From the IMG/VR virus record IMGVR_UViG_2874920711_000005: a DNA stretch of 28,069 nt, one strand, 5' to 3'. The first letter of the stretch is position 1. Every line of letters begins with the position of its first letter. The position numbers and the translations under genes are program-made. The notes beneath the pieces are model-generated. The model made no database searches. It was not told where the DNA came from and was given only the letters and a program-made list of their open reading frames with translations. Origin of the DNA: a virus. Taxonomy: Duplodnaviria; Heunggongvirae; Uroviricota; Caudoviricetes. This document shows positions 10,806-15,373 of this stretch, piece after piece.

Positions 10806-10880
<75 letters not shown>

Positions 10881-10883
10881 ATA

Positions 10884-10959
<76 letters not shown>

Positions 10960-10961
10960 GC

Positions 10962-11038
10962 TGGCCCACCACCGAGGACTCGAACCTCGCACCGTCAACT
11001 TAGAAGGTTGATGCTCTATCCGGATGAGCTAGTGGTGG
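10962..11038 (-). tRNA. tRNA-Arg (anticodon UCU, reads rare AGA)
   Basis: Acceptor CCACCAC/GTGGTGG, anticodon stem TCAAC/GTTGA with loop CTTCTAA, T-stem CGAGG/CCTCG, CCA end. Confidence 0.75.
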
Positions 11039-11039
11039 T

Positions 11040-11116
11040 TGGTGGCCCTTGCTGGACTTGAACCAGCGACCTGGCGATTATGAGTCGCTCGCTCTGACCA
11101 ACTGAGCTAAAGGGCC
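11040..11116 (-). tRNA. tRNA with CAU anticodon, most similar to tRNA-Ile2 (ileX-like, lysidine, reads AUA); elongator Met not excluded
   Basis: GGCCCTTTAGCTCAG...GCGACTCATAATCGC...GGTTCAAGTCCAGCAAGGGCCACCA; resembles E. coli ileX from memory. Confidence 0.7.
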
Positions 11117-13071: not shown

Positions 13072-13319
13072 CTTCAGAATCCTTCCAGATAAATAGCTCT
13101 CCCCTGTTCGGGTCCATCCCTCTTCTCCCTGCGCGCTACTTAAGTGAGTCGATTCTATCTGCGAAGGTGCGCGAATCAAATTCACCGGAAATAAACAACA
13201 AAAAACCCGCCGAAACGCTGAGAGATCACAGCGATGGGCGGGTTAAGTGCGGGTGCGTTGAGGATGCCTGACACATCAGAGGTGGGCGGGGATGGGATCA
13301 GCTCCCCGCCCGGTCACTC

Positions 13320-13475
13320 TTACTTCCTGGATTCGTAGTCTACGAAGACAGCGACCTCCGTCTGGCCGGTTCGGATTCGTACCTCACAGAGGTCTTTCCT
13401 CGTTACCAGTGCCGTCACTATGACGGTTAAACAGATGACGATCAGGGCGATTAACATCGCCTTTTGCTGCTTCAT
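13320..13475 (-). CDS. hok: Hok-family type I toxin (51 aa); the upstream regulatory region probably carries mok/sok elements (not resolved)
   Basis: MKQQKAMLIALIVICLTVIVTALVTRKDLCEVRIRTGQTEVAVF... is near-identical to HokD/Hok; GC-rich hairpins plus terminator-like structure downstream (13197..13311). Confidence 0.85.
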   Translation of the reverse strand: MKQQKAMLIALIVICLTVIVTALVTRKDLCEVRIRTGQTEVAVFVDYESRK

Positions 13476-13702
13476 AGCCTGCTTCTCCTTGCCTTTCGGC
13501 ATGTAAGAGGCTAACCTACATGTGCAAAGCATGAAATTGGCCTCAGATTAATGTTAAGCGTCTTGCCGGACGCGTAATGTTAACTGGGGCTTTTCTCTAT
13601 CTGCCTTTTGGTGTTCATGCCTGAAGCAGATAGCCTCAAGCACCCGCAGTCATTCTACTTACCTCGCCAATATGAAATCAATCAGAAAGGTGCCCCATAA
13701 AA

Positions 13703-14389
13703 TCACTCCTTCTCTTCTTTACCGTAGTGGAGTTGACCAATTTTGATAAGAGGGCGTCCCTGAGATTTGCGGTGTAGATTGGTATCGCGCAGAGAATACA
13801 CACAGCCACAATATTCCTGCTGATAGAATTTTTCGCGCTTGCTGATTTCAATCATACGGGACGAGCCGCCCTGCTTGCGCCAGTTATAATCCCAGTACAC
13901 CATGCCCGGATAATGCGCGACGGCTCGCCGCCCACAGTCGTTAACCTGCTGCATATTTTTCCAGCGTGAAATGCCCAGTGAACTGCTGATCACACTGAAA
14001 CCATTTTCAGCGGCGTACAGCGCTGTCCGCTCAAAACGCATGTCAAAACACATGGTGCAACGGATCCCTCGTTCGGGCTCCCATTCCATTCCTTTGGCTC
14101 GTTCAAACCAGTTGTCTGTGTCGTAATCAGCATCAATAAACGGCACGCCGTGTTGTTCAGCAAAGCGAATATTCTCATCCTTACGAATTAAATACTCTTT
14201 CTGAGGATGAATGTTCGGGTTGTAGAAAAAGATGGTGTAGTCGATTCCCGAGGCCTGAAGCGCCTCCATCACCTCACCGGAACATGGAGCACAGCAAGAG
14301 TGCAGTAGTAGTTTGTTTGCCCCGTTTGGGAGCTCCAATTTGGGCCGTTTGAAATCAGCAACTGTCATAAATATGTTTATTGGGGTCAT
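13703..14389 (-). CDS. queH: QueH-like epoxyqueuosine reductase (DUF208 family)
   Basis: Conserved Cys motifs [29 protein letters not shown] and overall resemblance to Thermotoga-type QueH. Confidence 0.75.
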
Positions 14390-14536
14390 AAAAATATCAA
14401 AGAGTGTAGCATTAGAACGGGGCTATCGGAAACAGATGTGTGACTGCTCCCCGCCCTTTCGGGCGGTCTCCTGATGATTTGAGGGTGCAGAAATCCCTCC
14501 GGTTAAGGATTAAATTTTTAACAGTGCTAAATTTAA

Positions 14537-14893
14537 TTATTCAGTTCTGGATTTTGTCGCCCTGCGTATCCGCGCTTTCGCGTTACGCTCAATCTGTATC
14601 AGCTTTTCTATATTTCTCCGCCTTTCCTGTTCCTCCTGGCGCAATAGCCTTACATCATCTGCCAGTCTGGTTTCTCTTTTTGCCACAGAGAGCATCCAGT
14701 CAAACGGCTCCACAACCGCACCGCAGATTTTACAGCGGACCTGACGCTCTTTTTCGTCAACCCGTACAGAGGCGTGATGGCAATATGGTCTTTCCGATGG
14801 CTCATAAAGAAAATTAACCTGATTACGAGGGCCATCCTCTTTTATCGGAAATAAAACGATATTGCTTAACTCATCTTCTGGGTTTATTTCCAT
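14537..14893 (-). CDS. Hypothetical protein with zinc-ribbon-like CHH...CKIC motif and Arg/Glu-rich C-terminal helix (118 aa from ATG 14893; track ORF starts 14950)
   Basis: Strong SD GGAGAGGAG before ATG 14893; no recognisable family. Confidence 0.4.
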   Translation of the reverse strand: MEINPEDELSNIVLFPIKEDGPRNQVNFLYEPSERPYCHHASVRVDEKERQVRCKICGAVVEPFDWMLSVAKRETRLADDVRLLRQEEQERRRNIEKLIQIERNAKARIRRATKSRTE

Positions 14894-14950
14894 GCTCCTC
14901 TCCTTTGATGCGAATGCCAGCGGTAATTGAAGCCTGATAGCTAATTTCAT

Positions 14951-15373
14951 TCACAGTATCGCCTCCTGAAAATTACCCTGATAGAAAGCCAGTACACGCT
15001 GCATAGCTTCGCTCTTCCGGCACTCGCGACAGATTATATTCAGGCGCCTGTCGTAGCGACGTATTTCTCCGTCAGGTAATGACCAGATAAGGTCCGGATC
15101 AACCACAGATGGTTTCCTCACCTTTACTCTCGAGAGTTTTTTGCGGGCGCTTTGCCAGTCCTTGCGAGCCTGTTCAGACGGGAATAAGCCGTAGCCAGAA
15201 TTATATACATCACCACTTGCGACCAGTTCTATGCATAAGCGACCGACAGACGCACGACTGATACCTGTTTCATCGGACAACTGCCGAATCGTGACCCGAC
15301 CGTCCTGATGCACGAGTTCCACAATTCGCGTCTTCAGTTCTTCCCGCTGTTCGGGAGTAAAAGGTTTCGCCAT
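14951..15373 (-). CDS. Hypothetical phage protein with N-terminal winged-HTH-like region (140 aa)
   Basis: AGGAGG SD; N-terminal ...RVTIRQLSDETGISRASVGRLCIELVASGDV... looks like an HTH. Confidence 0.45.
   Translation of the reverse strand: MAKPFTPEQREELKTRIVELVHQDGRVTIRQLSDETGISRASVGRLCIELVASGDVYNSGYGLFPSEQARKDWQSARKKLSRVKVRKPSVVDPDLIWSLPDGEIRRYDRRLNIICRECRKSEAMQRVLAFYQGNFQEAIL

Follow-up and report, generated by a model that had tools for sequence, protein, structure and literature searches.

A queH gene carried with hok/sok in Rac/Qin-type prophages of Escherichia coli: captured origin, wide carriage and a predicted role in B12-independent queuosine completion

Why does a lambdoid prophage carry a gene for queuosine (Q) synthesis when all E. 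coli strains that carry this gene already possess the B12-dependent isoenzyme QueG? We addressed this question for a stretch of DNA of 28,069 nucleotides from a tailed-phage record (Caudoviricetes; IMG/VR record IMGVR_UViG_2874920711_000005), referred to here as the window, in which a queH-like gene lies beside a hok toxin gene.

The element that carries the two genes is a Rac/Qin-type lambdoid prophage with a minus-strand reading direction. E. coli FDAARGOS_944 is 99.9% identical across the queH-hok region, and its prophage adjoins ybhA/modC. Transcription on the minus strand runs from a cro-like gene, ydaT, replication genes, ydaV (DnaC-like), a DUF977/Ren-like gene and a 137-aa zinc-ribbon ORF, through queH, hok/sok, a 133-aa ORF, a NinB-like DUF1367 gene, a YbcO/DUF1364 nuclease gene and a DUF1133 Q-like antiterminator gene, to four tRNAs, followed by lysis and structural genes. 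An initial sequence-only reading had placed queH in the nin region, and this placement is correct, with queH flanked by the ydaV/DUF977 replication genes on one side and by the NinB-like, YbcO and Q-like genes on the other. The features referred to below are as follows:

14951..15373, minus strand: DUF977/Ren-like gene (Pfam and PHROG), upstream of queH in all contexts examined
14537..14950, minus strand: 137-aa zinc-ribbon gene, an insertion in this prophage lineage only
14441..14466, minus strand: G+C-rich hairpin without a U-tract (-22.6 kcal/mol, z=-3.2), 3' of the 137-aa gene
14369..14439, minus strand: conserved 5' leader of the queH cassette, 71 nt (block boundaries and alignment)
13703..14368, minus strand: queH coding sequence, 221 aa (Pfam PF02677, E=1.9e-65; PDB match; AF2 fold; dN/dS)
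13652..13681, minus strand: promoter-like site TTGATT-18-TAGAAT (promoter scan), 22 nt past the queH stop codon
13200..13645, minus strand: predicted full-length hok mRNA (fold and Rfam RF01794)
13634..13645, minus strand: tac (5'), pairing with fbi at about 13251..13269 (3'; nucleotides 1-12 with the 3' end in the MFE structure)
13539..13592, plus strand: hairpin followed by CUUUUCUCU, putative Sok terminator (-30.2 kcal/mol, z=-6.8), antisense to the hok leader
13320..13532, minus strand: mok frame, 70 aa (PF01848; NCBIfam Hok family; PHROG 251, 'MokW-like host killing')
13320..13475, minus strand: hok, 51 aa, in frame within mok, an intact ORF
13191..13244, minus strand: intrinsic terminator (AACCCGCC...GGCGGGUU and U6GUUGUUU; -24.2 kcal/mol, z=-5.7), closing the queH-hok cassette
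10806..11116, minus strand: tRNA cluster with anticodons CAT, TCT (Arg), TGT (Thr) and TCC (Gly)

The gene had been read from the letters as a QueH (DUF208) member with the characteristic cysteine motifs, and both points were confirmed. The Pfam QueH profile matched at 220.6 bits (cutoff 23.5) over profile positions 1-174 of 175, and the protein also matched the solved Thermotoga maritima QueH 7lc5/7lc7 in sequence (E=5e-22). The ORF at 13703..14389 is real. Its start at 14389, which would give 228 aa, is probably unused in favour of the ATG at 14368, because one relative has a stop among the seven upstream codons and other relatives show free variation there. Orthologue N-termini align at M8 of the 228-aa ORF, and the coding start is almost certainly ATG 14368, giving the same 221 aa as RefSeq WP_012421537.1.

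In the 221-aa numbering, C25/C26/C29, C104/C107 and C187/C189 are all present. C25, C26, C104, C107, C187 and C189 correspond to C9, C10, C87, C90, C169 and C171 of T. maritima, and the CCxP, CxxC and CxC cysteines, which are metal-cluster ligands in T. maritima QueH, are invariant across 14 orthologues. We predicted the structure with AF2 from 14 orthologues (pLDDT 73.5, pTM 0.75), and the best PDB match of the model was QueH 7lc7/7lc5 (TM 0.79, target-normalised). The five top fold matches were all QueH (TM 0.77-0.80, target-normalised; best E=3e-9), while the next ones, the TtuA and LarE sulfurtransferases, were far weaker. The prophage protein has the same six Cys ligands and the same predicted adenine-nucleotide-alpha-hydrolase-like fold as T. 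maritima QueH (PDB 7LC5/7LC7). It differs at the position of Asp13, a residue mutated by the crystallographers of T. maritima QueH (D13N structure 9dco), where prophage and proteobacterial QueH have a cysteine (Cys29; CCAPC, not CCAPD). Cys29 was found in every chromosomal proteobacterial orthologue aligned, indicating that it is a clade trait and not a sign of decay. No NCBIfam model matched the protein, and in PHROGs the family is phrog_3217, of 'unknown function'. Judged by profile, motifs and structure model, the gene is a bona fide, full-length member of the QueH family, and its product is predicted by family to be an iron-sulfur, cobalamin-independent epoxyqueuosine reductase.

To trace its origin, we compared the gene with its chromosomal relatives. 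Outside Escherichia, the nearest orthologues, at 79-92% identity, come from Scandinavium, Kluyvera, Enterobacter, Erwinia, Providencia, Photorhabdus, Serratia and others, and the prophage copy has the same length as the chromosomal QueH of Providencia, Erwinia and Enterobacter. Wherever the neighbours were inspected, the surroundings were ordinary chromosomal ones: tmcA adjoins the gene in Providencia, purL in Erwinia and icd/rluE in Enterobacter, and Photorhabdus and Scandinavium gave the same picture. Neighbouring phage-module genes were seen only in E. albertii among the 80 species-representative loci scanned. On this comparison, prophage queH is a captured Enterobacteriaceae chromosomal housekeeping gene. 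In contrast to the T. maritima and chromosomal genes, it sits in a lambdoid early region, in a host that already has QueG. In Enterobacter sp. ECC-175 (906..4669), icd and rluE precede the chromosomal queH (89% identity) by about 1 kb. In E. coli, icd is a classic lambdoid prophage integration site, and the proximity in Enterobacter could bear on the route of capture.

Among seven prophage and phage queH alleles, dN/dS was 0.02-0.06 with dS up to 0.47. Such a low ratio despite high dS indicates strong protein-level constraint over a long stay in the prophage pool, and this purifying selection argues against a decaying passenger. More broadly, members of this QueH clade share 75-92% identity in alpha-, beta- and gammaproteobacteria (Sphingomonas, Pseudomonas, Stenotrophomonas, Enterobacterales), but identity to T. 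maritima QueH is only 31%. This unusually high conservation suggests extreme constraint, broad horizontal transfer, or both.

We then examined whether queH and the toxin locus form a unit. In 5/6 independent prophage contexts the upstream homology border of the cassette is at 14439; the sixth and most divergent context has it at 14416. The downstream border is at 13238. The hairpin at 14441..14466 is missing from other contexts, being lineage-specific and outside the conserved cassette. A conserved TCTGATGCTACAC box lies in the leader, as does TGnTATTTT, a weak candidate for an extended -10 that was picked by eye. No Shine-Dalgarno sequence was found in the leader. The consensus promoter scan gave no sigma-70 site upstream of queH on its strand, so that promoter function of the leader is only a suggestion. 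In most contexts examined, no terminator separates queH from the early-right operon.

The neighbouring Hok gene, also named in the sequence-only reading, is well supported (HOK_GEF PF01848, E=9.8e-23), and directly downstream of queH there is a complete-looking hok/sok locus, for which the near-identical genome carries the RefSeq name hokD. Rfam RF01794 (sok/hok-leader) scored 117 bits against a cutoff of 59 over 13470..13645, with model position 1 at 13645, and the promoter-like site at 13652..13681 is placed for a hok mRNA start at about 13645. The MFE fold of 13238..13645 (408 nt) joins the 5' end to the 3' end by pairing, at -166.8 kcal/mol (z=-7.65). On the plus strand, no Sok promoter emerged from the consensus promoter scan. 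By these sequence features the locus looks complete, and it resembles the hok/sok loci of plasmid R1, chromosomal hokA-E and Qin hokD/relF in its Hok peptide, in-frame mok, sok-model leader, tac-fbi end pairing and antisense terminator hairpin. Unlike those loci, this one is fused to a tRNA-modification gene 22 nt upstream of it; the Qin hokD of K-12 follows relBE. The addiction or abortive-infection function proposed for hok is a reasonable reading. The cassette is also comparable to phage morons and auxiliary metabolic genes: a metabolic gene of host origin sits in a temperate phage, at an accessory position whose content varies, and has a terminator downstream. In this comparison queH has the terminator at 13191..13244 but upstream only the weak extended -10 candidate and no consensus promoter.

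The sequence-only reading had also held that queH is not standard lambdoid cargo, and here the survey gave the opposite result: about 1000 complete E. coli genomes and at least 191 IMG/VR viral contigs carry the gene in one fixed position, and it has its own PHROG (3217). Its DNA was found in 995 of 5426 complete E. coli genomes (18%), almost always single and chromosomal, and RefSeq annotates it as 'epoxyqueuosine reductase QueH'. The full queH-hok/sok block (13238..14439) was present in 731/5426. The gene is not a common chromosomal core gene of E. coli, being non-core, prophage-borne and limited to 18% of genomes. Carriers include APEC O1, an O7:K1 strain, an ST95 strain and some O157:H7. 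In the best 80 of at least 191 IMG/VR viral contigs with queH, the gene was intact in all 80, in five protein variants. The adjacency to hok was equally constant in these best 80 contigs, with the queH-to-hok-leader junction in 80/80 and the leader beginning 52-64 nt past queH, while the 51-aa hok ORF was intact in 64/80.

A full hok/sok locus accompanies about 74-80% of queH copies; elsewhere a restriction-modification (R-M) system or Kiwa interrupts or replaces it. In O157:H7 Z1832 and E110019, an NgoMIV-type R-M system replaces most of hok/sok, so that no more than ~110 nt from the start of the hok leader remain. CREC_5 has Kiwa KwaAB between queH and hokD, and APEC O1 has a Doc toxin pair after hok. 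The slot downstream of queH is a prophage defence-system hotspot.

Among isolated phages (50,697 INPHARED records), Escherichia phage HannyBb is the sole genuine queH carrier; its gene occupies the same genomic slot and is annotated 'hypothetical'. Two records named 'Acinetobacter phage MD-2021a', with queH at 78% identity, were rejected as phages, the gene having soxR, cynX, tadA and further cellular genes as neighbours. These accessions (CAKLQH020000001.1 and CAKLQF020000001.1; 328-379 kb) look like mislabelled bacterial chromosome contigs. The gene also occurs on IncF plasmids, namely Salmonella pCFSAN024441_02 and Klebsiella pneumoniae pHNGS471-3 (84-91% nucleotide identity), beside fecCDE iron-dicitrate transport genes (Salmonella) or a TonB-family gene, plus IS elements. 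Plasmids are a second, non-phage mobility route for queH, possibly tied to iron supply.

Several other features of the prophages were recorded. A full-length RalA sRNA lies at 25493..25671 on the minus strand (Rfam RF02694, 216 bits), a match that indicates a RalR/RalA type I toxin-antitoxin pair, the second type I system of the element; RalR/RalA is typical of Rac-type prophages. At 20560..20747 on the plus strand, isrK (RF01394, 54 bits) is followed by a C4 antisense RNA (RF01695, 76 bits), directly upstream of a Rha-family regulator gene, and by these matches the three are a P1/P7-style c4-antirepressor immunity module in a lambdoid prophage. A DedA-family membrane protein gene at about 8345..8857 on the plus strand (position converted from L001 9246..9758) lies between the genes for terminase and lysis but in the opposite orientation, and looks like an independent moron.

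What, then, does the captured gene do? We compared it with QueG, which shares both its cell and its predicted reaction (oQ34-tRNA to Q34-tRNA). We searched 5426 complete E. coli genomes for queG and found it in all 5426, indicating that QueH is redundant in principle. E. coli cannot make B12 de novo. QueG needs this cofactor to be imported and is unrelated to QueH in fold and cofactor, whereas QueH works without it, according to passages in PMC4646009 and PMC5615194. Passages in PMC6850298 and PMC4646009 likewise state that E. coli and Salmonella require cobamide for the final step towards Q and, citing Frey 1988, that their tRNA keeps oQ34 in B12-free glucose-salts medium. QueG and QueH coexist in Staphylococcus aureus with different expression, which was read as cofactor hedging (PMC13443448).

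Based on these results, we propose that queH was taken from an Enterobacteriaceae chromosome into the accessory slot after the replication module of Rac/Qin-type Escherichia prophages, and that it moves with the hok/sok post-segregational-killing locus as one cassette. The enzyme would reduce oQ to Q at position 34 of host Asp, Asn, His and Tyr tRNAs. Because QueG depends on B12 and E. coli has no de novo B12 synthesis, prophage QueH would free the last Q step from external corrinoid supply. Such a change in how host tRNAs are modified would be a lysogenic-conversion trait. The hok/sok locus would stabilise the cassette or the prophage and may add phage exclusion. We give this reading, a functional QueH captured into a prophage slot with hok/sok and acting on host tRNAs without B12, a probability of about 0.6, and B12-independent queuosine completion on host Asp/Asn/His/Tyr tRNAs is the likeliest role. 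The activity of QueH in E. coli, its expression in lysogens and a B12-sparing fitness benefit are predictions of this reading. A stronger version, in which queH is expressed in lysogens and switches ~18% of E. coli to B12-independent queuosine formation, is put forward more tentatively, as somewhat less probable than its opposite. To our knowledge, no phenotypic difference between oQ- and Q-tRNA has been established in E. coli.

The phage tRNAs do not enter into this proposal. The sequence-only reading had noted a tRNA cluster about 2.6 kb from queH and hinted at a link; the distance is right, but the functional link fell away. Queuosine is formed solely on tRNAs with GUN anticodons (PMC5372724), and the four anticodons of the cluster (CAT, TCT, TGT, TCC) include none, which rules out the phage tRNAs as QueH substrates and indicates that their proximity to queH is coincidental. 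The CAT tRNA was called Met by ARAGORN and Ile in RefSeq. In related prophages (APEC O1, strain 200177), only Thr and Gly tRNA genes are annotated at the cluster position, and the cluster appears variable between prophages.

The strongest alternative, which we regard as unlikely though worth weighing, is that queH serves the phage: it would be transcribed only with the early-right (PR-type) operon after induction, and the higher Q level that it brings to host tRNAs in the lytic cycle would aid translation of NAU-rich phage or stress-response genes. The gene is co-oriented and in line with the replication, nin and Q genes and has no recognisable promoter of its own, and the viable isolated phage HannyBb has it in the same slot. 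According to a 2026 preprint, Q goes up in Shewanella when infection by phage induces queG, and the conversion of oQ to Q is treated there as the regulated step (10.64898/2026.03.05.709803). Our codon-usage comparison, however, showed no NAU enrichment in early or late prophage genes, the NAT fraction being 0.52 both overall and in late genes, compared with 0.50-0.63 for a few host genes. Turnover of tRNA within one lytic cycle is probably limited, and queH is also found on conjugative IncF plasmids, which favours a host benefit over a phage-only function.

A still less probable explanation is that queH brings no benefit and has persisted as a selfish hitch-hiker, through the hok/sok addiction module and a successful prophage backbone. 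The invariant queH-to-hok-leader junction in those best 80 IMG/VR contigs would fit this, as would the redundancy of QueH activity beside queG in every E. coli, and in many carriers the Rac/Qin-type prophage looks partly decayed, recE being truncated and genes frameshifted. A neutral passenger, though, should gain non-synonymous changes and frameshifts, whereas queH shows dN/dS of 0.02-0.06 and is intact in each of the best 80 copies; moreover, it persists at loci where R-M or Kiwa insertions have truncated or displaced hok.

A role outside tRNA, on 7-deazaguanine bases of DNA or in defence or anti-defence, is very improbable: the slot after queH does hold R-M, Kiwa, Doc and hok modules in different prophages, and passages in PMC13639016 describe the recruitment of QueC-like proteins to defence systems, but PADLOC gave no defence-family match for QueH, Hok or neighbours, the protein shares 79-92% identity and every catalytic motif with housekeeping orthologues, and a 2019 survey of viral 7-deazaguanine genes found no QueA, QueG or QueH among the viruses analysed (PMC6884629). 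The idea of DNA modification, raised in the sequence-only reading, also finds no partner genes, with no DpdA/TGT, FolE or QueC/D/E among the 48 annotated features of the near-identical prophage. Compared with phage Dpd/ArcS/QueC-type sets, queH belongs instead to the tRNA-specific late Q branch and has no DNA transglycosylase partner.

At the molecular level, QueH and hok/sok are both well-characterised families, and the exact protein is already QueH in RefSeq. In the literature we searched, no discussion of phage-borne QueH was found. The under-appreciated point is its carriage as strongly conserved lambdoid cargo in nearly a fifth of E. coli genomes. Prophage queH is common rather than unusual and is a case of horizontally transferred tRNA-modification capacity. 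If the gene is active in lysogens, a universal tRNA modification would be decoupled from vitamin B12 supply in a strain-specific and horizontally transferable manner, which would offer a tractable handle on whether oQ and Q differ functionally. If B12-independent completion by prophage QueH is true, carriers would have Q and non-carriers oQ in corrinoid-poor niches, a lysogenic conversion of the tRNA modification state, and E. coli would provide a natural isogenic system for asking how oQ and Q differ in decoding.
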